A stretch of DNA of 54,375 bases from Candidatus Peregrinibacteria bacterium (GTDB lineage: Bacteria > Patescibacteriota > Gracilibacteria > UBA1369 > LOWO2-01-FULL-3): NCBI GenBank assembly GCA_014729275.1, contig WJKE01000102.1:1-54375 (forward strand). The letters run 5' to 3'. The notes beneath the pieces were generated by a model. The model worked only from the letters and a program-made list of their open reading frames with translations. It ran no database searches and was not told the origin of the DNA. A program made the translations under genes and the position numbers. This document shows, piece by piece, positions 14,201-47,718 of this stretch. How positions within the stretch are numbered: position 1 is the first letter of the stretch; the number at the start of each line of letters is the position of its first letter.

Positions 14201-16429
14201 ATGTTAAAAAAGATTTTGATTTCATTGATTGCAATCGGATTATTGTCTGTAGTTGCGGTCAGTTATGCGGCGGATTTGTATGATGTCGGTGGGCATGATA
14301 ATGAAACTGCGATCCAGTATCTTTATGATAATGGAGTGATCTCCGGCTATCCGGATGGAAGTTTTAGGCCTGATAGTGTTGTGAATAGGGCTGAACTCTT
14401 GAAAATATTGGTTGGAGGAACTGGTGTGACTCCTTCGGTATCTCAGTATAATAATTGTTTTCCGGATGTGAAGGATGATTGGTACGCGCCTTTTGTTTGT
14501 TATGCAAAGTCCGAAGGCTGGGTAGATGGTTATCCGGATGGAACTTTTAAGCCTGAGCAATATGTGAATAAGGTTGAGGCGATTAAAATGGTGGTGAATT
14601 CTCAGGAGTATTATGTGCCGAATACGGTTTCGGGTTATGACACAGTGCTATTTGATGATATTGATATGAATGAGTGGTATGCTCCTTATTTGCATACTGC
14701 TTCGCAGCGAGGGCTTTTGGAAGAGGAAGGAAGTTTTTCTCCTGAAGCTTTAATGCGACGTGGACAAATTAGTGAAAATATTTATAGAGCAATGATTATT
14801 GAGGCTCACGGATTGTATACTTTTGATGATTATAGAAGCGATAGAGTGGTTTCGCCTTATTTTGAAAATGGAGATATTGATTTTGGTGAATTAACTCCGT
14901 TTGATGCAACTGCTATAATGGCGGGAAAGACGGATACTATTGTTAATGGATATTATGAAGGTTTTGGTAATGATGAAATTACACAGGCTGATAAGGATTA
15001 TCTTCTTGGTTTACTGAATTGGTATGAGGCAGGAACAATTAAGGTTGAACCTTATGAAGGATGGAAACTACTTCTTCTTGAACTTCAGTGTGATGGAATG
15101 TGTTTTAGATCTGATGTATATAGACTTGCTTATAATAGCGAAACAAATGAGCTTAAATATTTAGTTGATTATTCTGATGGAGCGGATCACGATTATTTGG
15201 AGGTTCTAATTGGAAATCAGGATAGTGATGTGAGTTTAAGTGGATTGAATCCTCCTCAAACGGTTTCGGTTCCCGGAATGGACGTTACTCTTGAGTTGGA
15301 GTCAGCTTTTGCGGATTTTAATTCTGCTACTTATATAGGAGAAGTTGCTTTTACTGAATCTAAATATGGTCAGTTATATTTTGCGCCTGAACAATATGGT
15401 TATGGGTGTTTGTATTTTGAATCACCTGATGGAGTGATTAGTCAGTATAAATACGATATTGGTTTGCTTGATGATAGCGTTGTGATTAATTGGGAAGAAG
15501 GTGGCGAAACTAATCTTTCCTCAAATTATAGTTTGACCCATAGGGGGTGTGGAATAGCGGGGTCTTGTTATTTTGTTGATACTATTGATGAAAGTGAGAT
15601 TGTATTGGCAGGTGTTACTAATGATGGAGTTGAATTATATGAGGTTGCTGATCCTATTGAAGGGTATTCTGAAAATAAAGATCCAGAGGGAATATCAAGA
15701 AAGCCACAATATTTGTTGGATTCTTATTATCAGATTTATTTGAGGTTAAATGAGGATACATCGGTTACTTTTGATGATTATGTTGATCAGAAACCGCTTC
15801 TTTACTGGCAGGATCCTTTTGGAAGGTGGTCGAGTATTTTGCTTGATGATTTTATGCCTGCTGCTGAATGCGGTAAGCCAGTGATTTATTTGTATCCTGA
15901 GGAAACGACAGATGTGAGTGTGGAGGTTGGAATTAGCGAAATGACTGTGAGCATTCCGGATTATAATGAGGGATGGAAGGTAAAGGCGTATAGTGATGGA
16001 ACTCTTTATAATTACGAGGATAAACAAACATATCCTTATTTGTTTTGGGAAGGGCATAGTGATAAGGAATTGAAAGTTGATAAGGGGTTTATGGTTTCTA
16101 AAAAGGAGCTTGAATCGTTTTTGACCGGTAGCTTGAAGGAGTTAGGGTTAAATGCTCAGGAGAGTGATGATTTTATGGAATTTTGGTATCCGATTATGAT
16201 GGATAATTCTGAGAATTATTTTTATGTGACATTTGTTGGAACACAGGATTTTAATAAGATTGCACCTTTGGCAATTGAGCCTTGTCCCGATACTTTGCTT
16301 AGGGTGTTTATGTATTATGAACCGGTCGCAGCTCCTTACGCAGTGATTCCTCAAGAATTAAAAGGTATGGAACGAAGAGGGTTTACTGTTGTTGAATGGG
16401 GAGGAACATCATCCAGAACATGGAAATAA
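14201..16429 (+). CDS. S-layer homology (SLH) domain surface protein
   Basis: 742 aa. Signal peptide followed by three SLH-like repeats (GVISGYPDGSFRPDSVVNRAELLKIL; GWVDGYPDGTFKPEQYVNKVEAIKMV; a third degenerate copy). The large C-terminal region is unassigned. Confidence 0.8.
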   Translation: MLKKILISLIAIGLLSVVAVSYAADLYDVGGHDNETAIQYLYDNGVISGYPDGSFRPDSVVNRAELLKILVGGTGVTPSVSQYNNCFPDVKDDWYAPFVCYAKSEGWVDGYPDGTFKPEQYVNKVEAIKMVVNSQEYYVPNTVSGYDTVLFDDIDMNEWYAPYLHTASQRGLLEEEGSFSPEALMRRGQISENIYRAMIIEAHGLYTFDDYRSDRVVSPYFENGDIDFGELTPFDATAIMAGKTDTIVNGYYEGFGNDEITQADKDYLLGLLNWYEAGTIKVEPYEGWKLLLLELQCDGMCFRSDVYRLAYNSETNELKYLVDYSDGADHDYLEVLIGNQDSDVSLSGLNPPQTVSVPGMDVTLELESAFADFNSATYIGEVAFTESKYGQLYFAPEQYGYGCLYFESPDGVISQYKYDIGLLDDSVVINWEEGGETNLSSNYSLTHRGCGIAGSCYFVDTIDESEIVLAGVTNDGVELYEVADPIEGYSENKDPEGISRKPQYLLDSYYQIYLRLNEDTSVTFDDYVDQKPLLYWQDPFGRWSSILLDDFMPAAECGKPVIYLYPEETTDVSVEVGISEMTVSIPDYNEGWKVKAYSDGTLYNYEDKQTYPYLFWEGHSDKELKVDKGFMVSKKELESFLTGSLKELGLNAQESDDFMEFWYPIMMDNSENYFYVTFVGTQDFNKIAPLAIEPCPDTLLRVFMYYEPVAAPYAVIPQELKGMERRGFTVVEWGGTSSRTWK

Positions 16430-17322: not shown

Positions 17323-18447
17323 ATGACTACCCCAGCGAAATTGATAAAGGAAATTACTTCAGTGGAAGAGCTTCTTAAGCATAAGGATATGCTTTTGAAT
17401 TTGACCCTTCAGAATTTGGATTTGAGGGAAGTGGATGTTGATTGGAAAGACGTGAAGATTGCAAATACAAGTTTTTTGGGATGTGAGATGGATGAGGAAA
17501 CTGAGCTAATTTTGCGTAAGAAGGGTGCGATTATTTATCCGAAATTTGTGGGTCTTCCATATAATCCTTATAGAAAGGATTTGTATACCTGGCAGGAGCT
17601 CATGGATGGCTATACTCCGGAGAATGATGCGAGTCTGGATTTGAAAATTTATAATCACTTTAAGCTGTTTAGGAATTCGGGGGATGTTAATGAGGCGTTG
17701 AGTCAGAGGATTCATGATCATGCGATTGATGATGCGCTTTTGGAGCTAATTGGGCGTGATAAAAGTGGTATGACTAAGAAAAAATGTATTGGTGTTATGG
17801 GTGGTCATTCTATTTTGAGGACTGATGCTTTTTATGAAAAGGTTGCGATTGCGTCTAAGAGGCTAACTGAGGAAGGGTATTTGATTGTTTCGGGTGGAGG
17901 TCCGGGGATTATGGAGGCTTCGAATTTGGGAGCTTATTTTGCGGGAAAACAGGATGATGAACTAATGGAGTCTATTGAAATTTTGAAGGCTGCGCCAAAA
18001 TATACTGATAAGGATTTTGTAGTTAAGTCACAGGAAATTATTGATAAATATCCTGAGGGACAGGAGAATATTGCTATTCCTACATGGTTTTACGGGCATG
18101 AGCCTTCTAATTTGTTTGCCACAAAAATTGCCAAGTATTTTTCGAATGCTATTCGTGAAGATATTTTGCTTGCGATTGCTATTTATGGAATTATTTACGC
18201 GCCCGGTTCTGCAGGAACACTTCAGGAGGTTTTTGCGGATGCAGCGCAAAATCATTATGTGAGTTTTGGTTATGCAAGCCCAATGGTGTTCTTTGGTAGA
18301 AAATTTTGGAGTGAGGATTCCTTTATTTATCAATTGGTAAAACAGCTATCTGAAGGATATAAGTATCATGATATGCTTGCGATTTCTGATGATCCGGATG
18401 AGATTGTGAAATTTATTAAGACGCATCCGCCAGTTCAGGAAGATTAG
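17323..18447 (+). CDS. LOG family nucleotide 5'-monophosphate nucleosidase-like protein (long form, PpnN/YgdH-like)
   Basis: 374 aa. Has GGGPGIMEA and APGSAGTLQE (PGGxGTxxE-type) motifs of the LOG/lysine-decarboxylase-like family, preceded by a ~150-aa N-terminal extension. Confidence 0.65.
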   Translation: MTTPAKLIKEITSVEELLKHKDMLLNLTLQNLDLREVDVDWKDVKIANTSFLGCEMDEETELILRKKGAIIYPKFVGLPYNPYRKDLYTWQELMDGYTPENDASLDLKIYNHFKLFRNSGDVNEALSQRIHDHAIDDALLELIGRDKSGMTKKKCIGVMGGHSILRTDAFYEKVAIASKRLTEEGYLIVSGGGPGIMEASNLGAYFAGKQDDELMESIEILKAAPKYTDKDFVVKSQEIIDKYPEGQENIAIPTWFYGHEPSNLFATKIAKYFSNAIREDILLAIAIYGIIYAPGSAGTLQEVFADAAQNHYVSFGYASPMVFFGRKFWSEDSFIYQLVKQLSEGYKYHDMLAISDDPDEIVKFIKTHPPVQED

Positions 18448-19855
18448 TTTTTTGTATACCGAAGTCTGGTGGCACAAGTCCTCCGTCGCTCCAACGTCTT
18501 TTGTGTTTGGGGTGGGTGTAGTTTTTTGAATATATACGTTCGAGTATTTTTAGAAATCTTTCTTGTTTAATTTTTCTGGTACAAATTCCGGTTTGTTCAC
18601 TTACTTCTTCTGCAATCATATCAATATAATCTTCACTTACTGTTCTAAAAAGACGACAAACTACTGATATTTTGCTAAGTGCTTTAAATATCCTATGGTC
18701 GTTTAAACCCTCATTGTTTTTATTGTTGACCAGGTTGATTTGGATTTCAAAAGTTCTAAGTATAGGATCGTTCTTTGGATCTCCATTAAATGGTACTACG
18801 GTTTCGCCTATAATTTTTGCTGTTTGAAAGTCGTTTCCGGAACAATCATTTGAGGTTTCATCGTATCCTATATTGTTTTCTTGCATATCGCTTTGAACAA
18901 TTTCCGCATAGTCGCCTTCAAAAAATTTTACATTTTCAACATTTAGGTTTTTTGCTCCCAATTCTTGTAAATGTATTGCGAGAAAGGCTAAACAATCTAC
19001 TGCGTCCTCTTTAGTTTTTACTTCAAGTTCAAATCCAATACCGTCTTTCATTACGTCAATCCATTTTTTCTTGGGTTTATTAAGAAGTTTTAGAATACAG
19101 CTTTCTTTACTTTTACCTCTAAATTTTTTTCCTTCAAGAGGTATCCACCTTGAATTTTTTGTGATAATTCCATTTTCTCTTATTCTTTTAAAGCCTTCAT
19201 GATCTTTACGTAATCGGTTAAATAAGAATTCACCTTCGTTATTTAGTCCGTTAAGTTGTTCTTGATTGAATTCCCAAAAGGCTAAAGTAATTTTTGCAAG
19301 GGTGCAGTAAAAAACTGCTGTTATGGGGTGTGATTTATCTTTTGAAATTCCTGTGTTTTTTAGGAAGTCAATTATATCTTTTTCTGAACTAAAATCTTGC
19401 TTATCTTTAAGTTTTGATTTAAGTCCTATGCCAAGATAGTTTTGAAGAAATTCTTTGGCTTGTATAAAACAGTTGCTTAGTTCCTGGAGAACTTTTTTAT
19501 CAAATTCCTCTATGCCTAATGTTTTTAGAGCTAACTTTTTATAGCTTTTGTATTCAACATCATTTGGGGTGTACATTAAGTCAAAAATTGTTACTTCATA
19601 TCCATTAGGGGTAGTGACGGTCCCCTCAGCAGCTTTTACTATTTCCCTCGCTGTTTCTTTTGCTTGTGTGCTTGTGTATGTGACAATTTCAGAAATTATT
19701 CCCATTTCTTCCGGGATTTTTTCGCCCTGTATAGGATAGGGGATAGTCAATGTGCTGAGTGTTGGCTCAGGACAGCTTATTGTACTGTTATCTATGTGTC
19801 GCATTTGAGCATTAATGAAGTGAAAAACATTACAACTTTTTCTTTCTTTTGTCAA
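18416..19855 (-). CDS. hypothetical protein with RelA/SpoT-like (RSH) nucleotidyltransferase-type motifs
   Basis: 479 aa. By-eye matches to the synthetase fold: RGKSKESCILKLLNK (RxKxxxSxxxK), DGIGFELEV (D-x-G-x-R-type strand) and TFEIQINLV (EIQIRT-like). No HMM was run. Confidence 0.4.
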   Translation of the reverse strand: MTKERKSCNVFHFINAQMRHIDNSTISCPEPTLSTLTIPYPIQGEKIPEEMGIISEIVTYTSTQAKETAREIVKAAEGTVTTPNGYEVTIFDLMYTPNDVEYKSYKKLALKTLGIEEFDKKVLQELSNCFIQAKEFLQNYLGIGLKSKLKDKQDFSSEKDIIDFLKNTGISKDKSHPITAVFYCTLAKITLAFWEFNQEQLNGLNNEGEFLFNRLRKDHEGFKRIRENGIITKNSRWIPLEGKKFRGKSKESCILKLLNKPKKKWIDVMKDGIGFELEVKTKEDAVDCLAFLAIHLQELGAKNLNVENVKFFEGDYAEIVQSDMQENNIGYDETSNDCSGNDFQTAKIIGETVVPFNGDPKNDPILRTFEIQINLVNNKNNEGLNDHRIFKALSKISVVCRLFRTVSEDYIDMIAEEVSEQTGICTRKIKQERFLKILERIYSKNYTHPKHKRRWSDGGLVPPDFGIQKTNLPELADAS

Positions 19856-20038
19856 GCGGTCTTGAAGTTGTTTTGCTTTAATGTAATAAAATTATTGGTC
19901 TGTTGACAAGTAAAATTCTGTGGGAAGCCTTATGAGGCATCATTTTTTACGATATATCAATATGAAATTAAGGTAAGCGATTGTATTGGGGTTCTAAAAT
20001 TAAGTAAATTGAAGTTAATAATCTTATTTAATCATCAA

Positions 20039-20893
20039 ATGGTATATCCAATTGAGTTGTCGAATGAGGAGTTAGCGCTTAAGGCCATACAAATGCGGCG
20101 GGATATTGTTGAAATGACTTGTAGTGCCGGGTCCGGGCATCCGGGAGGATCGCTTTCTTCTGTGGAAATTTTAGTGACTCTTTATAATACTGTGTTAAAG
20201 CATGATCCGGATAATGTTAAGTGGGAAGATAGAGATAGAATGATTTTTTGTAAGTGTCATATTACACCTGCGATTTATTCGATTTTGGCGCGCACAGGGT
20301 ATTTTAGCCCGGAGGATTTAATGACTTTTCGAAAATTGGGGTCTGATCTTCAGGGTCATCCTTCACGGTTTCATCCTAGAGGTATTGAAATGTCGGGGGG
20401 AAGTCTTGGGCAGAATTTGTCCGTTGCGACCGGTGTGGCTTTGGGGTTGAAGCATCAAAAAAAGCTGAATCGGGTTTTTGCACTTTCCAGTGAAGGGGAT
20501 CTTCAGGAAGGACAAAGTTGGGAGGCTGTAATGTCTGCAGCTCATTTTAAATTAGGTAACCTTTGTTTATTTGTTGACTATAATAAGCTGCAAATTGATG
20601 GTTATGTGGAAGATGTTATGGGAATTCATCCGCTGGATGAAAAATTTAAGGCGTTTAACTGGAATGTGCAGGTGATTGATGGGCATAAGTTTGATGAAAT
20701 TAGGGATGCTATAAAGAATGCGATTGCTTTTGAGGGGGGGCCGTCAGTGATTATCGCAAATACAATTAAAGGAAAAGGGATATCCTTTATGGAGAATGAG
20801 GCGGGCTGGCACGGGAAGGCCCCTTGTGGTGAAGATATGGAAAAGGCAATTGAGGAGCTTAAACATGAGGAATCTTTATTAACGACCAAATAA
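20039..20893 (+). CDS. transketolase, N-terminal (TPP-binding) subunit
   Basis: The track ORF starts at TTG 20009; the ATG at 20039 is more likely. Has GSGHPGGSLS, GSLGQNL and SEGDLQEGQSWEA motifs of split transketolase subunit A. Confidence 0.9.
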   Translation: MVYPIELSNEELALKAIQMRRDIVEMTCSAGSGHPGGSLSSVEILVTLYNTVLKHDPDNVKWEDRDRMIFCKCHITPAIYSILARTGYFSPEDLMTFRKLGSDLQGHPSRFHPRGIEMSGGSLGQNLSVATGVALGLKHQKKLNRVFALSSEGDLQEGQSWEAVMSAAHFKLGNLCLFVDYNKLQIDGYVEDVMGIHPLDEKFKAFNWNVQVIDGHKFDEIRDAIKNAIAFEGGPSVIIANTIKGKGISFMENEAGWHGKAPCGEDMEKAIEELKHEESLLTTK

Positions 20894-20901
20894 TAAAATA
20901 T

Positions 20902-21852
20902 ATGTCAGAAAGAGAAATGATGTTAACAAGAAAGGGATTTGCAGATGCTTTGATTGAAATAGGCGAGCAGGATGAAAAACTTGTTGTGCTTGATGCAGAT
21001 TTATCTAAGTCGACTTTAACTTCTCTTTTTAAGGAGAGATTTCCGGATAGACATTTTAATGTTGGAATTGCTGAGCAGAATTTGATTAATGTTGCCGGTG
21101 GGCTTTCTTTAACAGGTCTTACACCTTTTGTTTCTACTTATGGTGTGTTTTTGGCTGGAAGGGCATGGGAACAAATTAGAACAAGTGTTTGTTATGGTAA
21201 GTTGAATGTGAAATTTGGTGGAGCGCATGGAGGAATTTCGGTTGGTCCGGATGGAGCGACTCATCAGGCTTTGGAAGAAATTGCAATTATGCGTGTGATC
21301 CCTGAAATGAAAATTTGTGTACCCGCGGATTATTATGAGACAAAGAAAGCTGTAAAGGCTAGTATGGAGATTGATGGTCCTGTATATATAAGATTCGGAC
21401 GCGAAAAGGTGCCAGTAGTTACAAGTGAGGATCATGATTTTGAATTTGGTAAGGCTTATAAGCTTAAAGAAGGAAAGGATGTTAGTGTGATTGCTTGTGG
21501 AACTATGGTTAGCGAGGCTTTAGATGCAGCGGAGGCTCTTAAATCTGAAGGAGTAGATGTTGAAGTAGTTAATCTCCACACTATTAAGCCTATTGACGCC
21601 GATACAATTGTTGAAACTGCCAGGAAAACCGGGTGTATAGTTACTGCTGAAGAGCATCAGAAAAATGGTGGAATGGGATCTGCAGTGATGGAGGTTTTGG
21701 CTCAGAATTATCCGGTTCCTGTTGAAATGGTGGGGATTAATGACACTTTTGGTGAGTCGGGTTCGCCGAGTGAGTTAATGGAAAAATATGGAATTACATC
21801 TAAGAATATTATTGAAATGGTTAAAAAAGTTTTGACCAGAAAAAAATCTTAA
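20902..21852 (+). CDS. transketolase, C-terminal (pyrimidine-binding) subunit
   Basis: 316 aa. Has FNVGIAEQNL and GATHQALEEIAIMR motifs. Lies 8 nt after subunit A. Confidence 0.9.
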   Translation: MSEREMMLTRKGFADALIEIGEQDEKLVVLDADLSKSTLTSLFKERFPDRHFNVGIAEQNLINVAGGLSLTGLTPFVSTYGVFLAGRAWEQIRTSVCYGKLNVKFGGAHGGISVGPDGATHQALEEIAIMRVIPEMKICVPADYYETKKAVKASMEIDGPVYIRFGREKVPVVTSEDHDFEFGKAYKLKEGKDVSVIACGTMVSEALDAAEALKSEGVDVEVVNLHTIKPIDADTIVETARKTGCIVTAEEHQKNGGMGSAVMEVLAQNYPVPVEMVGINDTFGESGSPSELMEKYGITSKNIIEMVKKVLTRKKS

Positions 21853-21862
21853 ATAAAAACAT

Positions 21863-23050
21863 ATGAAGCCCTTTTCAAAAAGAATGCCCCATCTTGGAAC
21901 TGAAAATGCTTTTTCTGTTATTACAAAAGCTAAACAGTTTGAAAAAGAATCGGGGGTGAAGCTTGTATATCTTCAAATTGGTGAGCCCGGATTTGATACT
22001 CCAAAAAATATTAATGATGCGGCAAAAGCTGCAATTGATGATAACCAAACTCACTATACTCCAACTGCGGGAATTCCTGCTCTGCGTGAGGCAATTGCTG
22101 CATATCACACTAAATATAGTGCCGAACCTTATGAAGCTTCTGACACTGTAGTGGTTCCAGGTGGTAAGCCGGTAATGTTTTACATGATAAATGCGTTAAT
22201 TGATGAGGGCGATGAGGTGATTGTGCCAAATCCCTGTTATCCAATTTATGAGTCTGTAACTGAGTATTTGGGAGGAAAAGTTGTGCCTATTGCGCTAAAA
22301 GAAGAAAATGAATTCAATTTTTCTGCTGATGAGCTTGAAAAGTTGATTACTCCAAAAACAAAATTAATTATTTTGAATTCTCCACAGAATCCAACAGGGG
22401 CTGTGTATACTCGTGAATTGTTATGGGATATTGCTGAGTTAGCGAAAAAGCATGATTTGTGGATTCTTTCCGATGAAATTTATGACCAAATGGTACATGA
22501 TGGAGAGCATATTTCTATTACAAGTATTGAAGGTATGCCTGAGAGAACCGTTGTGTTAAACGGTTGTTCAAAAACTTATGCAATGACAGGTTATAGAGTT
22601 GGATGGGCAGTTACCAAAAATGCACAAATGGCTTCTTATATTGAACAATTTGCTTGTAATGATGTTTCTTGTGTGAATGTGCCTGCTCAATATGCTGCTC
22701 TTGAAGCTTTGACAGGTCCTCAGAAGGCGGTTAAGGATATGCTTAAGGCTTACAAAAAAAGGCGTGACCTTATGGTTGGATTAATCAATCAAATATCAGG
22801 AATGCGGTGTCATGCCCCTAAGGGTGCTTTTTATCTTATGGTGAACGTGCGCCAGATTTTGGATAAGTTGGATATTGATGCAGCCGAGCTTTGTGATCGG
22901 ATTATGCGTGAGGCACACGTGCTTGTGCTTCCCGGAACGGTTTTTGGGAAGTTTGGTGATGATTTTATTCGTCTTTCTTATGTTTCTACAGAGGAGCAGA
23001 TTAAAGATGGCTTATCTAAAATAAAGAAATATATTGATAAGATTTATTAA
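21863..23050 (+). CDS. class I/II pyridoxal-phosphate aminotransferase (aspartate/serine-type)
   Basis: 395 aa. Has LNSPQNPTG and the SKTYAMTGYRVGW Lys-PLP region typical of AspC-like aminotransferases. Confidence 0.85.
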   Translation: MKPFSKRMPHLGTENAFSVITKAKQFEKESGVKLVYLQIGEPGFDTPKNINDAAKAAIDDNQTHYTPTAGIPALREAIAAYHTKYSAEPYEASDTVVVPGGKPVMFYMINALIDEGDEVIVPNPCYPIYESVTEYLGGKVVPIALKEENEFNFSADELEKLITPKTKLIILNSPQNPTGAVYTRELLWDIAELAKKHDLWILSDEIYDQMVHDGEHISITSIEGMPERTVVLNGCSKTYAMTGYRVGWAVTKNAQMASYIEQFACNDVSCVNVPAQYAALEALTGPQKAVKDMLKAYKKRRDLMVGLINQISGMRCHAPKGAFYLMVNVRQILDKLDIDAAELCDRIMREAHVLVLPGTVFGKFGDDFIRLSYVSTEEQIKDGLSKIKKYIDKIY

Positions 23051-23059
23051 TTTAAAATT

Positions 23060-24040
23060 ATGAAAATCTATGTTACAAGGAGGATTCCGGAGAAAGGGCT
23101 TGATATGATCCGTGAAAAATTTGGAGAAGTGGATATGAATCCGGATAACAGAGTTTTGTTACATGAGGAGTTGATAGAGAATGTGAAAGGTGCGGATGCT
23201 GTGCTTTGCCAATTGACCGATAAGATTGATGCTGATGTTATGGATAGTGCGGGGCCGAGTTGTAAAATATTTTCGAATTATGCTGTGGGCGTGAATAATA
23301 TAGACTTTGACGCAGCAAATGAGCGTAAAATTATGATAGGCAACACTCCCGGTGTTCTTACCGATGCAACTTCCACCCTTGCAATTTCTTTAATGTTTAG
23401 TGTGGCGAGGCGAATTGTTGAGGCTGACAGGTTTATGCGTGGAGAGAATTTTGAAGGCTGGGATCCCATGCTGCTTCTTGGAAATAAAGTTAGCGGGCAA
23501 ACCCTTGGAATTATTGGTGCAGGTCGAATTGGTGAGGATATTGCCATAAAAATGCACAAAGGTTTTGGTATGAATGTTCTTTATACGGATTTGAATGGAA
23601 ATGAATTTCTTGAGGATAAGACCGGGGCCAAAAAGGTAGATATGGATACTTTATGCAAGGAAAGTGATTATATTTCTGTGAATGTGAATTATTATCCTGA
23701 AACGCATCATTTAATTAATGAAGAACGCCTAAGTTTAATGAAGGAAAATGCAATAATTGTGAATACTGCGCGGGGTCCTGTGGTTGATGAGGAAGCCCTT
23801 GTAAAGGCATTACAGCAAAAATGGATTTTTGGTGCGGGCCTGGATGTTTTTGAAAATGAACCTAAAATGAAGCCGGGACTTAAGGATTTAGATAATGTTG
23901 TTATTGTTCCTCATATAGGTTCTGCTACTTTTGAGGCGAGGACAAAAATGTCGGAAATGGCTGCTCAAAATTTAATTGATGCTTTGGAAGGACGACTTCC
24001 CGAGTTTTTGGTGAATAAAGAGGTTTTTAATGTTAAGTAA
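23060..24040 (+). CDS. D-2-hydroxyacid dehydrogenase (glyoxylate/hydroxypyruvate reductase)
   Basis: 326 aa. NAD-binding GIIGAGRIG and the catalytic region NTARGPVVDE...PHIGSAT. Confidence 0.85.
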   Translation: MKIYVTRRIPEKGLDMIREKFGEVDMNPDNRVLLHEELIENVKGADAVLCQLTDKIDADVMDSAGPSCKIFSNYAVGVNNIDFDAANERKIMIGNTPGVLTDATSTLAISLMFSVARRIVEADRFMRGENFEGWDPMLLLGNKVSGQTLGIIGAGRIGEDIAIKMHKGFGMNVLYTDLNGNEFLEDKTGAKKVDMDTLCKESDYISVNVNYYPETHHLINEERLSLMKENAIIVNTARGPVVDEEALVKALQQKWIFGAGLDVFENEPKMKPGLKDLDNVVIVPHIGSATFEARTKMSEMAAQNLIDALEGRLPEFLVNKEVFNVK

Positions 24041-25256
24041 TAACGAAGAAACTTATATTCAACTTTTTAAGGATTTAATTGATCCTCTTTTTGAGAAAAT
24101 TAGCCCCAGGAATTTAATTAGGGATGCTTTACGGGGAAGGGATTTTTCCAAATATAAAAGAATTTTTGTTATTGGTGCAGGTAAGGCATCTGTGGTTATG
24201 GCTAAGAGTGTTGAAAATTATTTTAATGCTCTTGAGCAAGGCCATATTATATATCCGGATAATCAAAATAAGCTGTGTTTGAAAAAAATTACTGCAACTG
24301 CGGCTTCTCATCCTCTTCCAAATGAGAAAGGCATAGAAGGAAGCCGGAAAATTATGAAAATTGCTGATAAGGCGCAGGCAGGGGATTTGGTTATTAGTTT
24401 GATTTCAGGAGGAGGATCCGCTCTTATGCCGTTACCGGTTGAAGGGCTTGAGTTAAACGAAAAAATTGATTTGAGTAAACAGCTTATACGCTCCGGGGCG
24501 ACTATTAATGAAATTAATGTTGTGAGGAAGCATGTTTCAAAAATAAAGGGCGGGTATTTGGCTAGGGCTGTGTATCCAGCTGATTGTTTAAATTTAGTAA
24601 TTTCTGATGTTGTGGGAGATGATTTGAGTACTATTGCTTCTGGTCCTCTTTCACCTGATCCTTCGAGCAGGGAGGATGCAAAGGAGATTTTAGATAAATA
24701 TAATATTGATCTGCCTGATGTTATGAAGGAAACTCCAAAACCCGGGGATGAGTGTTTTACTAAAGTGGAAACTAAAATTTTGGCGAATCATGAAACCAGT
24801 GCTTTGGCTGCATTTGATTTACTTGAGGATGTGGACAAGGAAATCATTGATACTAATCTGGAAGGTAATGTTAAAGAGGTTGTAGAAAAGATTTTAGGAG
24901 ATTGCACAATAAAGCATAAAATTTATATATATAGCGGAGAAACAACAGTTGAGGTAAAAGGAGACGGCTATGGTGGGAGGAATCAGGAGTTTGTGCTTTT
25001 AGCTTTAAAGGAAATGCGAGATATGAGGAAAAATTTTGTGATTATGTCTTTAGCAACTGATGGGGTTGATGGTTTTTGTCCTGAGGATGTTGCTGGGGCA
25101 GTTGTGGGGCCATCTACAATAAAGAAAAATCCGGAAATTGATAAATATCTTGATAATAATGATTCTTATTCTTACTTTAAAAGTGTGGGGGGGCTTATAA
25201 GGACAGGTTCTACAGGTAATAATTTGGGTGATTTAATGCTTGTTGTTTTGATATAA
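24030..25256 (+). CDS. glycerate 2-kinase (MOFRL / TtuD family)
   Basis: 408 aa. Has VIGAGKAS, ISGGGSALMP, GGRNQEFVL and ATDGVDG motifs. Overlaps the upstream dehydrogenase by 11 nt. Confidence 0.8.
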   Translation: MLSNNEETYIQLFKDLIDPLFEKISPRNLIRDALRGRDFSKYKRIFVIGAGKASVVMAKSVENYFNALEQGHIIYPDNQNKLCLKKITATAASHPLPNEKGIEGSRKIMKIADKAQAGDLVISLISGGGSALMPLPVEGLELNEKIDLSKQLIRSGATINEINVVRKHVSKIKGGYLARAVYPADCLNLVISDVVGDDLSTIASGPLSPDPSSREDAKEILDKYNIDLPDVMKETPKPGDECFTKVETKILANHETSALAAFDLLEDVDKEIIDTNLEGNVKEVVEKILGDCTIKHKIYIYSGETTVEVKGDGYGGRNQEFVLLALKEMRDMRKNFVIMSLATDGVDGFCPEDVAGAVVGPSTIKKNPEIDKYLDNNDSYSYFKSVGGLIRTGSTGNNLGDLMLVVLI

Positions 25257-25316: not shown

Positions 25317-26822
25317 ATGAGTGAAAAATATGATGGAATTGAGCTTGGTGGGGGAGTTATAGAGCTTGCTTCAGAGGATATGGAAGCAATATTGGGATTT
25401 GATGAAAATGCCGTTAATGTGAGCTGCGATGAGTTTAGGGCAAAGATTGCTGAGCTTTTTGGAAAGGATGCGATTGAAAATATGGAAGAGGATAATTTGG
25501 TACTTGCTTTAATACGAATGGGAGTGATGGATTTGGATGAAAAGCATGGTATGCCCGTATTTATTTTAAAGAGAGGGGCCTTGAATGAGTTTGTTAGAGT
25601 AATTTTGAATCATTTGAGTGAGGAGGAATTTGAAAGTTTTTTCCCTGAGGAATTTGGAATTGATTTGAGTAGGAAAGCTGTTACTGATGAGGATTTAAGG
25701 TTTTTTGAACAATCTGAGCGCTTGAGGGGATTAAAGCATCTGAATTTATCTTTTTGTAAATTAACAGAAAATGGAGTGCTAAAGCTTTCTAAAATGCAGT
25801 GTTTTTCCGGATTGAAAAGTCTTAATTTAAGTGGAAATAATATTGGGCTTAAGGGAGTGCAGAATCTTTTGTCTTCACCTGTTTTACAGAATTTGGAGGA
25901 GTTATTTTTGTCTAATTGTGGACTTCATAATGTTTATAGTGAGGGTGGGCTTAATTTCCAGAATTTAAGGGATTTGCGCAGCTTGGATTTATCGGATAAT
26001 GATTTGGGGGATTGCGATATTCCGACAATATTTAGCCTGAATACTGTTGGATCTATTAAAACTCTAAATCTTAGAGGAAATAAAATTTCCAAAAGTGTTG
26101 TGTTTTTGGCTAAATGTCCTGCTTTGCAGGGGGTGGAGCAGATGAATTTGAGTGAGAATGATCTTGATACAGACAGTGTTATTACATTTGTAAGATCCGG
26201 TAATCTTGTTGCTTTGAAATCTTTGGATTTGAGCTCGAATCGTATTCTTTCCAGAGCTTTAAGTGAACTGGGCCTACATTTTAAGTCTCAACTTGAGGAA
26301 TTAAAAATTGCTGATAATCAGATTGATTCCATGGGATGTATGATTATTGCGAGTTTGCCGGCATTTTGGGATTTGAAAAGTCTTGATTTAAGTTTTAATC
26401 CTGTTAGGAACGAGGGACTTGAATATCTTTCTTATGCAAAATTTCGAGATGGCTTGAATTCTTTATGTATTAAGCAAAGTGGAATTAGTGATTTGGGTTT
26501 TGTCGCATTTTGTGAAAACGGAAATTTTCCAAGCCTTGAAAATTTGAATGTTTCGAACAGAGCAGATTTAAATAAAGGCAATTATATGAACAGAATCGGG
26601 AAAAACGGTTTTAGAGCTTTGCTTGATGCAGAGGGGTTTCCAAAACTTGAAAGTTTGGATGTTTCTGAAAATTTGATAGATGAAAAAGCATTAGAGATTT
26701 TGGAGTTGGTAGCTTTACGTTACGGTCTTAAATATATTGGGCTCAGAGCCGGGCAACCCGATATTGAAACTTACAACAAATTGAAATATTTAATAGAAAA
26801 GGGCTGCAGTTTTGATTGTTAA
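25317..26822 (+). CDS. leucine-rich repeat protein, ribonuclease-inhibitor (RI/LRR_6) type
   Basis: 501 aa. At least 10 consecutive ~28-aa repeats of the form LKxLNLSxNxIGxxGxxxL (for example LKSLNLSGNNIGLKGVQNLL, LRSLDLSDNDLGDCD, LKSLDLSFNPVRNEGLEYL). Confidence 0.8.
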   Translation: MSEKYDGIELGGGVIELASEDMEAILGFDENAVNVSCDEFRAKIAELFGKDAIENMEEDNLVLALIRMGVMDLDEKHGMPVFILKRGALNEFVRVILNHLSEEEFESFFPEEFGIDLSRKAVTDEDLRFFEQSERLRGLKHLNLSFCKLTENGVLKLSKMQCFSGLKSLNLSGNNIGLKGVQNLLSSPVLQNLEELFLSNCGLHNVYSEGGLNFQNLRDLRSLDLSDNDLGDCDIPTIFSLNTVGSIKTLNLRGNKISKSVVFLAKCPALQGVEQMNLSENDLDTDSVITFVRSGNLVALKSLDLSSNRILSRALSELGLHFKSQLEELKIADNQIDSMGCMIIASLPAFWDLKSLDLSFNPVRNEGLEYLSYAKFRDGLNSLCIKQSGISDLGFVAFCENGNFPSLENLNVSNRADLNKGNYMNRIGKNGFRALLDAEGFPKLESLDVSENLIDEKALEILELVALRYGLKYIGLRAGQPDIETYNKLKYLIEKGCSFDC

Positions 26823-26849
26823 TAAAAATCTTTATTTATTACATTTATT

Positions 26850-28442
26850 ATGATATCTGAAGAATTAATTGAAATTAAGGATTTTGGAGAAAAAGAAGCT
26901 TTAGCTTCGGAGTTTGCCTATAAAAGAGCTTGTGATCCGGATTATTTGAATTCCAGAGAACAAGATTTTGAGAATTTTGGTGATGAATATTTTAAAATAA
27001 TTGAAATTATTGATGGAATTAGTTCTGATTGTTTGGATGGAATGCTGTCCGGCGATCCTGAAATAGATATTTTAACATTGGTCAGAAAGGTAAAAGGAGA
27101 AGTTATTGGCCTTACCGGGAGAGATAAAATTTTTAAAATTTCCTGTTTAAGAAAGTGGATGATGGATTTTTTTCAGAATAAGGAAGATGTTTATAATAAT
27201 GGGAATAATATAAGGACTAAGAATCCCAGAAGGTTGTCTATTCAGAAACGAGTTAATTCAGAGCTGATGGAATGCGCAGAATCGGTGAGGAAGAAGGAGG
27301 GAAAATTATCAGATATAATTGATATTTTAAAAAGAAAAAGAACTTTTATTAATGGATGTCATATTGCGACTGTAATGCATAGGGTTGATCTTCAGGCGAT
27401 TGATCAGGAGGCTTCGGCTTTTTTGTATGAGCTTAATGAGATTTTAAAGAATCGCATGATTATTTTTTCGGTTTGGGAGGCTTGTCAATGTGTTATGGCT
27501 TTGAAGGATATGGACAGTGCGACACTACCTGATGATTTTATCAGTAATGTTATGAAAGGACAGAAGGGGGAATATAATAACGTCAGATATAGAAGGCTGT
27601 TAGTGTTTTGTTTAACGGGCTTAAGAAATCTTTCAGCCAACCAGGTTCCAAGAGAGTTTTTGGAAATGATTGCTGCAGAGATAAACGGGCAATATCGTTT
27701 TAATGAGGAGGAAATTGGTATTGGTGTTTTCTCTTTGAGGAATATGATAGATGAGAATGTACCAAGGGAGTTATTTGAGGGATTTATTCGGTCTTTTGAT
27801 CCTGAAAACATGAGTTTTAATAATTCTTTTATCGGGCGTTGTCTTTATGGATTACAAGGGCTTAGTAACGAGTCTGTGCCGGAAGAATTTTTTGAAGCAT
27901 TTTCTTCAAATATTGATGAGTATATCTTAAATTTGTCGGGAATGACGTTAATAAATTCTTTGTGGGGATTGGCTAATTTTAGCAATATTTCAGGGGCAAA
28001 GGTTATAATTGAAAAGTTTTTTGAAAAAATTGAATATTTATTGGAGATGGGTATATCTGATCTGATTTATATTCCTTATATTGTTCAGGTTTATAGACTT
28101 TACGGAAAATTTCTTCCTCTGAAATTGAGTAATTTATATCAATCTGTGATTAGAATCAACCCGGATCCCAGTGAAAGTTATTATGAAGAGATTGTTTCAG
28201 AAGTTGTTTTGAATAATTTTCCTTCAGTTAGTATTAATAAATTTTTGGATGGTTTTGAAATGGACTTTTTTGATAGTAATAAACGAATTAATCTGGAAAT
28301 TGATGGTAGGCAACATGCAAAAGAACCTTTAAAAGATGAAATTCGAGATAAATTTTTGCGATTACACCACGGAATTAAAGTTGTAAGAATAAATGTTCCT
28401 TCAAACTCTTTAAAAAGAAGAGTTTTTCAATTATTTAAATAA
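26850..28442 (+). CDS. helical-repeat (HPR/OPR/FASTK-like, ~39-aa period) protein with C-terminal RAP/DUF559-like (Vsr-fold) nuclease domain
   Basis: 530 aa. About six ~39-aa repeats (LVFCLTGLRNLSANQVPREFLEMIAAEI; IGVFSLRNMIDENVPRELFEGFIRSF; IGRCLYGLQGLSNESVPEEFFEAFSSNI; LINSLWGLANFSNISGAKVIIEKFFEKI). The C-terminus FEMDFFDSNKRINLEIDGRQHAKEPLKDEIRDKFLRLHHGIKVVRI matches the D...E-x-D-G-x-x-H core of RAP/DUF559 domains. Confidence 0.55.
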   Translation: MISEELIEIKDFGEKEALASEFAYKRACDPDYLNSREQDFENFGDEYFKIIEIIDGISSDCLDGMLSGDPEIDILTLVRKVKGEVIGLTGRDKIFKISCLRKWMMDFFQNKEDVYNNGNNIRTKNPRRLSIQKRVNSELMECAESVRKKEGKLSDIIDILKRKRTFINGCHIATVMHRVDLQAIDQEASAFLYELNEILKNRMIIFSVWEACQCVMALKDMDSATLPDDFISNVMKGQKGEYNNVRYRRLLVFCLTGLRNLSANQVPREFLEMIAAEINGQYRFNEEEIGIGVFSLRNMIDENVPRELFEGFIRSFDPENMSFNNSFIGRCLYGLQGLSNESVPEEFFEAFSSNIDEYILNLSGMTLINSLWGLANFSNISGAKVIIEKFFEKIEYLLEMGISDLIYIPYIVQVYRLYGKFLPLKLSNLYQSVIRINPDPSESYYEEIVSEVVLNNFPSVSINKFLDGFEMDFFDSNKRINLEIDGRQHAKEPLKDEIRDKFLRLHHGIKVVRINVPSNSLKRRVFQLFK

Positions 28443-28571: not shown

Positions 28572-28835
28572 ATGAGATTACGAATGAATGAAGGGGGAAT
28601 TGAGGGGGAATCGCAAAGGCAGTTAGAGAGGGATGAATTTGCCGGTCATGTTTTTGATTTAATGAGAGGAAGTGATGTTGTTCCTTTTACTGAGGGGATT
28701 AGGGATGCTTTACCAAAGACTTGTTTATCTATTAATAGGGCTTGGGCTGATCAGTTTGGTTTGTTGTGGATAGATTCAGAGCTTATTGAGCGATTAAGGT
28801 CTCAAGGTTTTAACTACGAAGATTTGGGGCTTTAG
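28572..28835 (+). CDS. hypothetical protein
   Basis: 87-aa ORF in the same orientation as its neighbours. No recognisable motif. Confidence 0.35.
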   Translation: MRLRMNEGGIEGESQRQLERDEFAGHVFDLMRGSDVVPFTEGIRDALPKTCLSINRAWADQFGLLWIDSELIERLRSQGFNYEDLGL

Positions 28836-28857: not shown

Positions 28858-29457
28858 ATGAAAGAACGAAATTATTATGGGGAAGTTAGGGAGCAAATAG
28901 ATGAATTGCGGGAATTATCACAGGAAGCTGAATTGTTAGTTACTCTTGTTCAAGATGATAATGCTGAAATTTTAGATTGCCTGCATGAATTTTCAAGTAA
29001 ACTTTTAAAATGGATGGCTGCTTTACAATTAACCATGGGTGATATGTCTGAGGAGATAAGCGGTGAATTGGATGTGTATAATATTGAGGAAAATAATTCA
29101 TGTTCAATTTCTTTGTTTTCTATTGAGGAGCTTGAGGTTGTTATTTCAAATGCTGAGAATATTGATGAACGAGGTAGAAGGATGATTGTATTGAGGGATG
29201 AGGAGGAGATTTTTGATCAGTTTAGAACTGAATGCCCATTGTATTATGCTTCCGATATAGAAGTGAGTGAGCCAATTTGTTTTAGAGTGGGGAAAAGTGA
29301 GAGGCTGGTGCGAACAAGTGGAGTTGTTAAGAGAATTATTAGAGATGAGGGAGCAATTCATGTTGTTACTACTTGTGATAATGTTTTTAAAATTCAGGAA
29401 GGAATGATTTTTGCTTCGGGAGAGGAAAATAATTGGTATTTGGATAGGACGTTTTAG
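28858..29457 (+). CDS. hypothetical protein
   Basis: 199-aa ORF, 22 nt after the previous ORF. No recognisable motif. Confidence 0.45.
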   Translation: MKERNYYGEVREQIDELRELSQEAELLVTLVQDDNAEILDCLHEFSSKLLKWMAALQLTMGDMSEEISGELDVYNIEENNSCSISLFSIEELEVVISNAENIDERGRRMIVLRDEEEIFDQFRTECPLYYASDIEVSEPICFRVGKSERLVRTSGVVKRIIRDEGAIHVVTTCDNVFKIQEGMIFASGEENNWYLDRTF

Positions 29458-29507: not shown

Positions 29508-30143
29508 TTATGTTTCGATATCGTAACCGGCATCGACCCATGCAGAGTAGTTCCCCTCCAGTCTGTAAACGTTTGTGAATCCGGCATCAACCAGTTTTTG
29601 TGCTCCCAGTCTTGATGGCTCTTCACCGTGACAATAAACAAGATACATAGCTTCTGTATCGAGAGTTGGAATTGTATCATCAAGAGTACCATCTCCAACA
29701 GGGTAATTTACAGCTCCAGGAACGTGTCCATCCGCATAATGAGGAGACACATCAACAACTATCAGTTCCGGCGTAGTGTCAATCAGATCTTTAGCTTCAC
29801 TAGCTGTAAGATCAGTATAGTCGTATTCCATAACTTCTTCTTCAACTACTTCTTCCTCCATTGTATCATCTTCTTCAGCCATGCCCATTTTGTCCATCAT
29901 ATACATGTCGTATCTGTACATGATTGTTGCAAGTTGCGCACGTGTTACATTTCCTTCAGGTACGAAGTTTCCGTCAATACCTGTAATCAGACCGGCTTCG
30001 CCAGCCCAGTTTGCCGCATCTTCATACCAAGAACCTTCTTCCACATCAGGGAAAAGCATTTCAGATACAGCGTATGCTGCAGTGTTAAGAATAAATATCG
30101 CGAAAATCGCAACACCTACCTTTACCGCCTTCTTCATTTTCAT
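29508..30143 (-). CDS. secreted SLH-like domain + rhodanese-domain sulfurtransferase
   Basis: 211 aa. Signal peptide; SLH-like segment (WYEDAANWAGEAGLITGIDGNFVPEGNVTRAQLATIMYRY); an acidic linker; and a rhodanese domain with the active-site loop CHGEEPS and C-terminal YRLEGNYSAW. Confidence 0.75.
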   Translation of the reverse strand: MKMKKAVKVGVAIFAIFILNTAAYAVSEMLFPDVEEGSWYEDAANWAGEAGLITGIDGNFVPEGNVTRAQLATIMYRYDMYMMDKMGMAEEDDTMEEEVVEEEVMEYDYTDLTASEAKDLIDTTPELIVVDVSPHYADGHVPGAVNYPVGDGTLDDTIPTLDTEAMYLVYCHGEEPSRLGAQKLVDAGFTNVYRLEGNYSAWVDAGYDIET

Positions 30144-30283: not shown

Positions 30284-30661
30284 ATGACATTAAATAATAA
30301 GTCAAAACAACAGAATTGGCCTAGTTTTGATGAAACTGAATTATCTTTAGAGTTTTTTAGAGGATTAAATTCTCGAGAAAAAGATATTGTTTTGACTAAT
30401 GCTGCAAAAGTTCACGAAGAACAATTAGCTAAATTTTTTGCCGTTACCAGTGCTAACTGGGTGGTTATTGCCGGTTGTACAATAGTTGCCATGGGTAGTG
30501 ATAAGATGAAATTGAATGAAGAAGATATTTCTGGAATTGAGGAACAAGCCGGGTCTATTTGTTTTGTTTATACACGTCCGGAGGGGCAAGAGGGAGATTT
30601 TTTATTGGCTGAGGAAAGAGAAGGGGTTAATATGAAGCTAAGGGAAAATTCGGAATTGTAG
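30284..30661 (+). CDS. small protein, paralog family member 1 (WV-I-G---VA-G module, DUF5678-like by recollection)
   Basis: 125 aa. Aligns by eye with 30692..31054 and 33994..34488 (NWVVIAGCTIVAMGSD...ICFVYTRPE). Confidence 0.5.
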   Translation: MTLNNKSKQQNWPSFDETELSLEFFRGLNSREKDIVLTNAAKVHEEQLAKFFAVTSANWVVIAGCTIVAMGSDKMKLNEEDISGIEEQAGSICFVYTRPEGQEGDFLLAEEREGVNMKLRENSEL

Positions 30662-30691: not shown

Positions 30692-31054
30692 ATGAAATCT
30701 TTAAAAGGTCCGCGTTATAAACCGGAAAAAGATGAATGGTGGGGAAGGGGCGAAACTAAAGAAGTTAGAGCTCCGGGGGAGGAAGTGAGTAATGTTATGG
30801 AGATCATGGATTTTTGTGCAGAAATTCATTTTATGCGCGGAATGAATCTTCAAAATATTAATAAACGGGCAGAGGTGAATAGAATTGTGGCAGACACTGT
30901 TTTTGCTACTTTAGATGATGATTGGGTGATTGTTCAAGGTTCAAACGTTATTTGCAAGGGAAAGGACACTGACCCTGTTAGCGCAAAAGATAGGTTAATT
31001 GCTTTACAGAAAACTGCAGGATTTAATGATATTTGTTATTTGTTTAGAAAATAA
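30692..31054 (+). CDS. small protein, paralog family member 2
   Basis: 120 aa. DWVIVQGSNVICKGKD...ICYLFRK aligns with its two paralogs. Confidence 0.5.
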   Translation: MKSLKGPRYKPEKDEWWGRGETKEVRAPGEEVSNVMEIMDFCAEIHFMRGMNLQNINKRAEVNRIVADTVFATLDDDWVIVQGSNVICKGKDTDPVSAKDRLIALQKTAGFNDICYLFRK

Positions 31055-37709: not shown

Positions 37710-38306
37710 GGGGTTGAGAATCTTTACTGTACTTAGTAAAGATAATTCAATATAATTTTTATAGTTTTTATCAATCGAAAATATGTTTGATTTATTACTT
37801 GAATATAAATTTGTTATCGGCTTTATTGTGATAATTTGTGTTGGTGGGGGGGGTATTTTTTTGATTATGCTTATAGGGAAGGGTTTAAGGCAGGAAGAAA
37901 AGATCATGCTTATGAATTAAAAGTTGCAAAAAAAGAATAAAGAGATTGCTGAAAATCAGGTTAGAATGTTAGAAAATGAAGATGTTTAAAATTTTTGTTT
38001 TTTAATCTTAAATAGTTAAAATAAATTTGTTGATATTGATGACGTTAAAAATAAAGAGATAGAAAGATAAAAAAATGGTGAAATAACACCTGTACAAAAA
38101 AAATCATTTACGAGAAATGTCTTGATAATAATTGTTGTTGTTTTTGTTGTATTTTTTAGCGTTTATTATCTTATTTTTTATTTGCTAACATTTTAAAACC
38201 TAGTCGAAAGGGGGGTGGAGGAGATGGGGAATTTGTTGGAGTGAAAATTTTGATATTTTTTTAATTGGTATCTATACTTTAGTTAACTTAATAAAAAGAC
38301 ATTAAC

Positions 38307-39005: not shown

Positions 39006-39030
39006 TAATTTTATACTACTTTATACTCTT

Positions 39031-39498: not shown

Positions 39499-39775
39499 TA
39501 ATAGACGGATTTCGTACTCCTTCTACGCATGGTAGATGAGCTATCTTAATGTTACGGTTTTAGTATTATATTGTCAATATGATTCGTCGGTTATTTGCTT
39601 AATAGTGCGCTTTTGTGAGATTAAAATTAATTCATCAGTATGAGCAATACAAGACTAAGTACTATACAAATATAGTTGAGTGCTAACTCTTAAATAGAGT
39701 TGAAAGTGTTTTTGATTAATTGAATAAAAATTTTTTTTGAAGTATAGATAGGTATATAATTTATATTTATGATTT

Positions 39776-45952: not shown

Positions 45953-45958
45953 TTAATT

Positions 45959-47709: not shown

Positions 47710-47718
47710 GGAATAAAA

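Follow-up and report, generated by a model that had tools for sequence, protein, structure and literature searches.

An OPR-like helical-repeat protein with a predicted Vsr/DUF559-type nuclease domain, and its leucine-rich-repeat neighbour, in Candidatus Peregrinibacteria

We examined two adjacent genes of a Candidatus Peregrinibacteria bacterium, within a window that comprises one whole contig of 54,375 bp. The upstream gene, open reading frame 1 (ORF1), encodes a leucine-rich-repeat (LRR) protein, while the downstream gene, ORF2, encodes a protein in which a predicted α-solenoid of OPR-like helical repeats lies between an N-terminal helical domain and a C-terminal domain of the Vsr/DUF559 nuclease type. 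ORF2 is our main subject, and its predicted fold resembles that of repeat proteins from eukaryotic organelles. The initial annotation of this DNA had placed two ORFs at 25317-28442, 27 nt apart and following a core metabolic operon, and both our coordinates and the upstream genes agree with this description. The features of the locus are as follows, with lengths and positions within the proteins in amino acids (aa).

25317 to 26822, + strand: ORF1 (NCBI GF354_04680), LRR protein of 501 aa, from the ORF list and Pfam
25317 to 25706, + strand: ORF1 N-terminal acidic non-LRR domain (aa 1-130), pI 4.23, no family match
25719 to 26741, + strand: ORF1 LRR array (aa ~135-475), similar to the ribonuclease inhibitor (RI)/CC type, ~12 repeats with a period of 26-27 aa
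26823 to 26849, + strand: AT-rich spacer of 27 nt between ORF1 and ORF2
26850 to 28442, + strand: ORF2 (NCBI GF354_04685), 530 aa, N-terminal helical domain, OPR-like α-solenoid and Vsr/DUF559-type nuclease domain
26850 to 27290, + strand: ORF2 N-terminal helical domain (aa 1-147), no family match
27291 to 28157, + strand: ORF2 α-solenoid (aa 148-436), six bihelical repeats of 38-40 aa plus capping helices, pI 5.1
28179 to 28439, + strand: ORF2 C-terminal Vsr-like PD-(D/E)XK (DUF559) domain (aa 444-530)

The C-terminal domain of ORF2 scores above the Pfam cut-off for DUF559 (PF04480; 20.6 bits), both within the full protein (21.6 bits) and in isolation (25.3 bits, E = 1.4e-5). RAP (PF08373), in contrast, does not match ORF2 at E ≤ 1, and even at E ≤ 10 it misses the C-terminal domains of ORF2 and seven relatives when these are scanned in isolation. 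Thus, at the level of sequence, the DUF559 part of the RAP/DUF559-type C-terminus proposed initially stands, while the RAP part does not. The motif of this domain reads E446 ... DGFEMD472 ... NLE483-I-D485-G-RQ-H489 ... R499-D500..L503 ... R513. In an alignment of ORF2 with 11 relatives (12 sequences, 22-26% identity), no variation is seen at Y333, L335, E446, G468, E470, D472, N481, E483, D485, G486, H489, R499, D500, L503, and R513, and the resulting Vsr/DUF559 signature, D...E-x-D-G-x-x-H...R-D..L...R, is found again in 54 family members. The active-site pattern of DUF559/Vsr is present in ORF2, with an Asp on strand 2, an acidic-x-Asp-Gly on strand 3, the His, and the RD..L helix. We take D472 and H489 to be the counterparts of Vsr D51 and H69, from a hand alignment to the Vsr sequence, and with its catalytic-type residues kept, the active site of ORF2 is apparently intact. 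FASTKD4, unlike ORF2, carries an Asn at the corresponding His position, and its site is inactive (PMC11879112).

Against the PDB, the sole nuclease found with a profile of the ORF2 family is 3hrl, a DUF559 "endonuclease-like protein" (E = 0.12), which is presumably the N. gonorrhoeae protein used for the first RAP models. RAP domains themselves have been modelled on an N. gonorrhoeae DUF559 structure and on Vsr (PMC5449608). Among the profiles for the FASTK helical region, FAST_1 (PF06743) reaches 13.5 bits on ORF2 (E = 0.068), below its cut-off of 27.4, and FAST_2 gives no match; neither profile matches any of the relatives scanned (sets of 61 and 71).

Upstream of the nuclease-type domain, the repeat cores of ORF2 (h-x-G/S-L-x-N-h) fall near aa 175, 215, 255, 293, 332, and 371, with a spacing of 38-40 aa. 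A hidden Markov model (HMM) of 39 positions, which was built from the repeats of other family members with ORF2 excluded, detects four copies in ORF2 (at 257, 288, 328, and 369) with a score of 26.5 bits, whereas none of 500 shuffles exceeds 7.7 bits. The earlier description of about six helical repeats of ~39 aa is therefore borne out, as four repeats that are detectable by sequence and ~2 that are degenerate. The solenoid is acidic (pI 5.1, net charge of -7), as is the whole protein (pI 5.2), while the nuclease core is basic (pI ~10). The N-terminal domain is common to the closest bacterial relatives, with DFExF..EY.. and LRKWAL motifs in the 12-sequence alignment.

The AlphaFold2 model of ORF2 that was built on the 12-sequence alignment is confident (pLDDT 82, pTM 0.69), with most of the solenoid at pLDDT 80-94, whereas the single-sequence model (pLDDT 54) was unusable. 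The model comprises N-terminal helices (aa 14-147), helix hairpins (aa 150-435), and the C-terminal domain (aa 444-529), for which the predicted topology is helix-β-β-β-helix-helix-β-helix (H444-456, E461-466, E469-475, E480-485, H487-491, H493-507, E510-515, H521-529). In a Foldseek search of the PDB, the T. gondii mitoribosome ranks first with several chains of its large subunit (9i05_Xr/Xl/Xv/Xi and 9g6k_Li; ~400 columns aligned at E = 1.4e-5 to 1.5e-4), ahead of chain 6rd4_2 from the ATP synthase of Polytomella, a mitoribosomal protein of Tetrahymena, and the Chlamydomonas mitoribosome chains 7pkt_O/P. Further neighbours include Polytomella mitoribosomal 8a22 chains as well as designer and natural PPR proteins, some of them in RNA complexes. 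The FAST1-FAST2-RAP region of human FASTKD4 (9gek) is also retrieved, at E = 0.029, probability 1.0, and TMq 0.30 over 426 columns, which is a resemblance rather than proof of homology. Because the model matches mitoribosomal repeat proteins and FASTKD4 while the RAP and FAST profiles fail, the likeness of ORF2 to FASTK/OPR-RAP proteins holds at the level of the predicted fold and not at that of the sequence family. The FASTK/OPR/HPR RAP architecture named in the initial annotation is accordingly upheld in layout and, as a resemblance, in predicted fold, by the model and by Foldseek, but not as family membership.

The relatives of ORF2 came to light only when phmmer was run exhaustively against 1.84 billion cluster representatives; a word-indexed search with ORF2 returned only itself and one relative, and the 12-sequence alignment returned no more. 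The family revealed in this way, which we refer to as the GNALYGLQ-repeat/DUF559 family, comprises 175 cluster representatives when the threshold is E ≤ 1e-3 and 46 when it is E ≤ 1e-10. Repeats in the family are far cleaner than in ORF2, with the consensus LxxQx[IV]GNALYGLQ[NG][ML], which continues with V-P-x-E-[LF]-[LF] in a bacterial subgroup, and their periods are 38 aa (54 cases), 39 aa (69), and 40 aa (259). In the two sets of relatives scanned against Pfam, DUF559 is found in 34/61 and 23/71 sequences and MTES_1575 in 11 and 16, while RAP is found in 0/61 and 1/71 (E = 5e-4). Weak matches to DUF1601 (PF07671), a repeat family of Coxiella burnetii, occur in 3 and 2 relatives of the two sets.

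The N-terminal domain of ORF2 is also present in its closest relatives (E = 1e-41 to 1e-30). The named eukaryotic members, which come from the protists Amorphochlora, Biecheleria, and Chlorochromonas of the SAR group, stand further away (E = 7e-11 to 3e-7). A metagenome-assembled genome (MAG) of Pseudomonadota is also among the named relatives, and a scan of a genome collection found 3 loci, in Pseudomonadota, Melainabacteria, and unclassified bacterial MAGs. Family members range from small soluble proteins of 410-570 aa to very large proteins of 1400-1900 aa in Gram-negative MAGs, namely P0003 (1662 aa), P0004 (1871 aa), and P0029, which is from Pseudomonadota. P0003 contains up to ~17 near-identical 38-aa repeats, and the gene for P0004 adjoins LptFG and porin genes. 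The repeat array also occurs without a nuclease domain in several relatives (P0062, P0003, P0004, and P0029; locus L010). In a protein of the dinoflagellate Biecheleria, it is joined to a methyltransferase of the TrmB type (Pfam Methyltransf_4, the tRNA m7G methyltransferase family), while other domains seen in relatives are an Ntox44 toxin domain in two distant members and an OTU protease in one.

Where the contigs are long enough, the neighbours of the closest relatives are bacterial housekeeping genes such as purA, purB, purC, and purE, murJ, ftsH with secDF, those of a macB-type ABC transporter, and a DNA polymerase X gene with an SLH-domain gene; an SLH protein also lies near the ortholog P0011 in locus L012. 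One ortholog, P0012, adjoins a PurA that clusters at ≥90% identity with that of Candidatus Peregrinibacteria, and it is thus assigned to a second Peregrinibacteria genome. Directly downstream of P0012 and on the same strand, a DEAD-box helicase is encoded (locus L007, 11490-12728); this neighbour, seen at one locus only, is suggestive of a role connected with RNA. No recurrent partner gene was found by Pfam analysis of the neighbours at the 13 loci encoding ORF2 relatives (L001-L013).

The ordinary bacterial chromosomal contexts of the orthologs argue for a resident cellular function. The initial annotation had proposed testing for transfer from a eukaryote to a bacterium. We see no sign in these sequences of a recent transfer into Peregrinibacteria, since every one of the nearest relatives with a placeable locus has bacterial genes around it, one of them in Peregrinibacteria, and the named eukaryotic members are more distant. 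The family looks sparse and so far undescribed, and our literature search found nothing on the GNALYGLQ-repeat/DUF559 family, on DUF1601, or on DUF559 with helical repeats.

ORF1 is matched in Pfam by LRR_4 (1e-21) and LRR_6 (8e-19), as well as by LRR_1 and LRR_8, and is of the RI type by its LRR_6 score (66.5 bits against a cut-off of 23.4). Its top matches by sequence among solved structures are the ribonuclease/angiogenin inhibitor 4peq (6e-13) and then the Legionella LRR protein 4q62. The LxxLxLxxNxL units extend from aa 139 to ~470 (positions 139, 166, 193, 220, 300, 326, 353, 380, and 444), and the LRR matches all begin at ~aa 117-139. The repeats are therefore RI/CC-like as first described, but the protein is not almost entirely LRR, as aa 1-130 form a separate domain. 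Compared to classical RI, ORF1 has a shorter repeat period (26-27 aa versus 28-29 aa), the extra 130-aa N-terminal domain, and no sign of nuclease binding. The whole protein is acidic (pI 4.7). No ortholog of ORF1 was found among 5.8 billion proteins, where only generic LRR similarity was seen; the best match has 26% identity over 71% of the query, in the LRR region only.

By phmmer and motif scan, an LRR gene or a relative of ORF1 is found at 0/13 of the loci encoding ORF2 relatives. With ORF1 lacking an ortholog, the pairing is therefore specific to this genome, and taken with the absence of LRR genes from the 13 loci, this leaves both a nuclease/inhibitor module and a co-evolving effector pair unsupported. 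The initial annotation had raised a nuclease/inhibitor-like module and secreted effectors as alternatives, and the co-occurrence of the two families across genomes, which it had proposed as a check, lends no support to a pairing. Judged by its sequence, ORF1 is an orphan RI/CC-type LRR protein and an unconserved neighbour of ORF2, with no indication of a dedicated role as its partner or inhibitor.

With moderate confidence, and largely by analogy, we read ORF2 as a nuclease that binds nucleic acid, probably RNA, and that would serve as a resident cytoplasmic factor in RNA processing or stability. The role of the solenoid would be to place the protein on a specific nucleic acid that is single-stranded and most probably RNA, and the Vsr-like domain would then cut or clamp the bound molecule; the outcome would be an RNA-processing or stability factor that acts in the cytoplasm of the bacterium itself. 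We infer an RNA substrate, sequence specificity, and cleavage by ORF2, with RNA as the proposed target because of the analogy with OPR-RAP, HPR, and FASTK proteins and because relatives carry the repeat array fused to RNA-modifying and toxin domains. The fusions to a TrmB-type methyltransferase and to Ntox44 are consistent with the array being a nucleic-acid-targeting module.

Several observations weigh against this reading. The acidity of the solenoid and of the whole protein is atypical for the RNA-binding tracts of PPR/OPR proteins and fits a protein-binding scaffold as well. The Vsr/DUF559 relatives with known activity act on DNA, and ORF2 has no conserved gene neighbour across the 13 loci. 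There is also no link to the organellar proteins at the level of sequence: searches of the PDB with ORF2, with the whole-family profile, and with a repeat-only profile retrieve no OPR, HPR, FASTK, or RAP chain, and in Pfam, RAP and FAST_2 are absent while FAST_1 stays below its cut-off. Finally, the TM-scores are low (0.30-0.35 on query length), which is usual for flexible solenoids but makes them weak as proof, and generic convergence among α-solenoids could explain the likeness to OPR, HPR, and FASTK proteins.

It is rather unlikely, in our estimate, that ORF2 is instead a DNA-directed endonuclease of the Vsr, homing, or restriction type, with repeats that recognise DNA or tether the enzyme to proteins and with a role such as mismatch or lesion nicking or that of a selfish or defence nuclease. 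DUF559 is the only family model that ORF2 passes, with relatives giving weaker matches to MTES_1575 and PvuRts1I-like restriction-endonuclease models, and the characterised Vsr clade cuts DNA (1VSR; I-Bth0305I, cited in PMC11879112). Designed PPR solenoids, including the Foldseek neighbour 5orq, also bind single-stranded DNA. However, the best fold neighbours of ORF2 are RNA-bound organellar proteins, its orthologs lie in housekeeping contexts that differ between genomes, and no methyltransferase or mobile-element gene adjoins it. In addition, ORF1, ORF2, and four ORFs downstream of them have no match among the PADLOC-DB defence models at E ≤ 0.1.

That ORF1 and ORF2 are secreted, eukaryote-like effectors, with ORF2 acting on host or organelle RNA in the way suggested for the OPR/RAP-like and SKWP proteins of intracellular and plant-pathogenic bacteria, appears improbable. 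Both proteins lack an N-terminal signal peptide or hydrophobic segment, their base composition matches that of the contig, and orthologs of ORF2 with the conserved N-terminal domain recur in Peregrinibacteria in housekeeping neighbourhoods. LRRs and OPR-like repeats are nevertheless typical modules of eukaryote-like effectors, and bacterial OPR/RAP-like proteins are on record in Orientia and Coxiella (PMC7729196, PMC8635915). Within the family, the very large repeat proteins P0003, P0004, and P0029 of Gram-negative MAGs, the OTU protease in one relative, and the occurrence in protists point the same way. Here the paired form of the idea suffers in particular, as the pairing is absent from all 13 loci. 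Infection of eukaryotes is not known from Peregrinibacteria, nor are type III or type IV secretion systems.

We give very little credence to the view that ORF2 came to resemble FASTK, OPR, and HPR proteins by convergence and that it is a generic TPR/HEAT-like protein-binding solenoid without a nucleic-acid role, its DUF559 domain being degenerate or regulatory. The acidic solenoid, the low TM-scores, and the lack of sequence similarity to solved OPR, HPR, and FASTK chains would suit it, and FASTKD4 provides an example of a nuclease domain of this sort that is catalytically dead (PMC11879112). Yet the catalytic-type residues are invariant over 12 divergent sequences and the nuclease core is basic. 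Moreover, the fold ranking is headed not by TPR or HEAT proteins but specifically by organellar RNA-binding repeat proteins that end in the same kind of domain.

Least probable of all is a nuclease/inhibitor (toxin-immunity-like) pair in which the RI-like horseshoe of ORF1 caps the nuclease of ORF2 as RI caps RNase A: the genes share a strand and are separated by just 27 nt that hold no terminator-like site, the ORF1 repeats most resemble RI among solved structures, and Ntox44 occurs in two distant ORF2 relatives, but none of the 13 relative loci has an LRR gene, ORF1 has no ortholog, ORF2 orthologs evidently occur without an LRR partner, the gene order is a large LRR gene and then the nuclease, both proteins are acidic, and the enzymes bound by RI belong to the RNase A family, which has no relation to PD-(D/E)XK folds.

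Turning to the genomic setting, the genes upstream of ORF1 and ORF2 on the same strand encode a split transketolase, a class I/II aminotransferase, a D-2-hydroxyacid dehydrogenase, and a DUF4147/MOFRL glycerate kinase. They form a compact operon (20009-25256, + strand) in which the transketolase is present as N and C halves and the dehydrogenase is of the hydroxypyruvate/glyoxylate type, and which looks like a serine/hydroxypyruvate-to-glycerate route tied to the pentose-phosphate pathway. No terminator-like site was found on the + strand between 24800 and 29600, in a scan that is uninformative in that its promoter and terminator counts equal the shuffled expectation; co-transcription of ORF1 and ORF2 is plausible because no such site lies between them. 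The window holds no paralogs of either ORF. We also considered a horizontal-transfer island holding the two genes and dropped the idea because their GC content (0.335-0.352) equals the contig mean (0.346).

Elsewhere in the window, a 1054-aa restriction-modification enzyme of the Eco57I/MmeI type (type IIG) with a TaqI_C specificity domain is encoded at 42788-45952 (+ strand), and the stretch around it (~38000-50000) is low in GC, down to 0.26-0.33 compared to 0.35 for the contig; this stretch may be an acquired island. Two SLH-domain proteins are encoded, one of 742 aa with two such domains (14201-16429, + strand) and one of 211 aa that combines SLH with rhodanese and has a signal-like N-terminus (29508-30143, - strand). 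Downstream of ORF2, no annotation could be obtained for the ORFs at 28572-28835 and 28858-29457, while the adjacent small ORFs at 30284-30661 and 30692-31054 (+ strand; 125 and 120 aa) are paralogs of each other (BLASTP 1e-7) without a match in Pfam or PADLOC. A 374-aa protein with a weak match to SLOG cluster4 (LDcluster4) is encoded at 17323-18447 (+ strand), convergent with a 479-aa ORF at 18416-19855 (- strand) that has no Pfam match.

As for what is new here, the initial annotation held that no bacterial system of this composition had been described, which was too strong. Proteins of this kind are already known, because bacterial OPR/RAP-like proteins have been recorded: OtRAP of Orientia tsutsugamushi, with OPR-like repeats and, at its C-terminus, a RAP domain, and the RipS/SKWP type III effectors, which have related repeats, were noted earlier (PMC7729196), as were OPR proteins in Coxiella burnetii (PMC8635915). 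Some prokaryotic proteomes contain one or two RAP candidates (PMC8190603), while HPR proteins were reported absent from sampled bacteria (PMC6212722). What looks undescribed is the GNALYGLQ-repeat/DUF559 family itself, its occurrence in Peregrinibacteria, and its seemingly intact active site.

Beyond the reading of ORF2 as a resident RNA-directed nuclease, a broader proposal can be made, although we think it unlikely to hold: that the family is a prokaryotic counterpart, and possibly the ancestral stock, of OPR-RAP, HPR-RAP, and FASTK proteins, and that it provides a repeat-programmed, catalytically active cytoplasmic RNA endonuclease that is a resident RNA-processing enzyme in Peregrinibacteria. 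If so, these bacteria would possess an enzyme for tasks such as rRNA or mRNA maturation in reduced genomes, and the design of helical repeats joined to a Vsr-like nuclease would have originated in bacteria rather than in eukaryotes. The FASTK, OPR, and HPR RAP proteins are major regulators of mitochondrial and plastid RNA whose code, catalysis, and origin are poorly understood. A bacterial family with the same architecture, a seemingly intact Vsr-type active site, and small soluble members would offer a tractable test of the idea of a sequence-directed nuclease and of the origin of the design. By contrast, the partnership proposed with the LRR protein does not seem to be a meaningful one.

When compared to known systems, ORF2 shares with the bacterial DUF559/Vsr family (PF04480; 3HRL, 1VSR) its last ~90 aa, which score above the DUF559 cut-off and keep the motif; typical DUF559 proteins, however, are small and stand-alone or fused to DNA-related domains, whereas in ORF2 the domain caps a 290-aa solenoid. 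With OtRAP, the Coxiella OPR proteins, and RipS/SKWP, which we compare by description only, it shares a bacterial origin and OPR-like helical repeats. Those proteins are considered effectors and belong to bacteria that are obligately intracellular or pathogenic to plants, the SKWP repeats are 42 aa long as opposed to 38-40 aa, and ORF2 itself has no DUF1601 or RAP match.

The best structural match is to the T. gondii mitoribosome chains (9i05, 9g6k), which are not individually assigned to HPR or RAP; the mitoribosome is reported to bear RAP and HPR proteins, which are RNA-binding helical-repeat proteins, on its periphery (PMC11652630). Identity to these chains is only 10-15%, and they are organellar ribosome components. 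The repeat period of ORF2 also differs from the 37 aa of HPR proteins. FASTK (9gek) has in common with ORF2 a helical repeat region followed by a Vsr-like C-terminal domain, although the Foldseek E-value is only 0.029 and the FAST profiles do not extend to ORF2 (FAST_1 under its cut-off, FAST_2 without a match).

OPR-RAP proteins of green algae, plants, and Paulinella (Arabidopsis RAP, Chlamydomonas NCL/Tab1-type proteins, and the chromatophore OPRs) resemble ORF2 in combining a tandem solenoid of 38-40-aa two-helix repeats with a small Vsr-like PD-(D/E)XK end. ORF2 differs from them in being bacterial and acidic, in lacking a transit peptide, and in having the extra conserved N-terminal helical domain. 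OPR repeats have no model in domain databases, Pfam included (PMC13126933), and published motifs are available from Paulinella, "FxxQxxxxxLNAxAKL...P....L", and from a Chlamydomonas example (PMC7729196 and PMC12691811, respectively). By eye, the family repeat corresponds to the OPR motifs at Q4, at N8, L13, and L16, at the hydrophobic positions 6/10/13/16, at the aromatic position 11, and at a Pro turn followed by an aromatic residue or Leu, with "VPxEF/VPxELL" at positions 21-26. The "VPEEF/VPREF/VPREL" of ORF2 likewise falls by eye at the OPR PPPEW turn, with the Pro 1-2 residues later in ORF2. In its spacing and in its predicted structure, ORF2 thus has the repeat form of OPR proteins, that of tandem, degenerate 38-40-aa units of two antiparallel helices.

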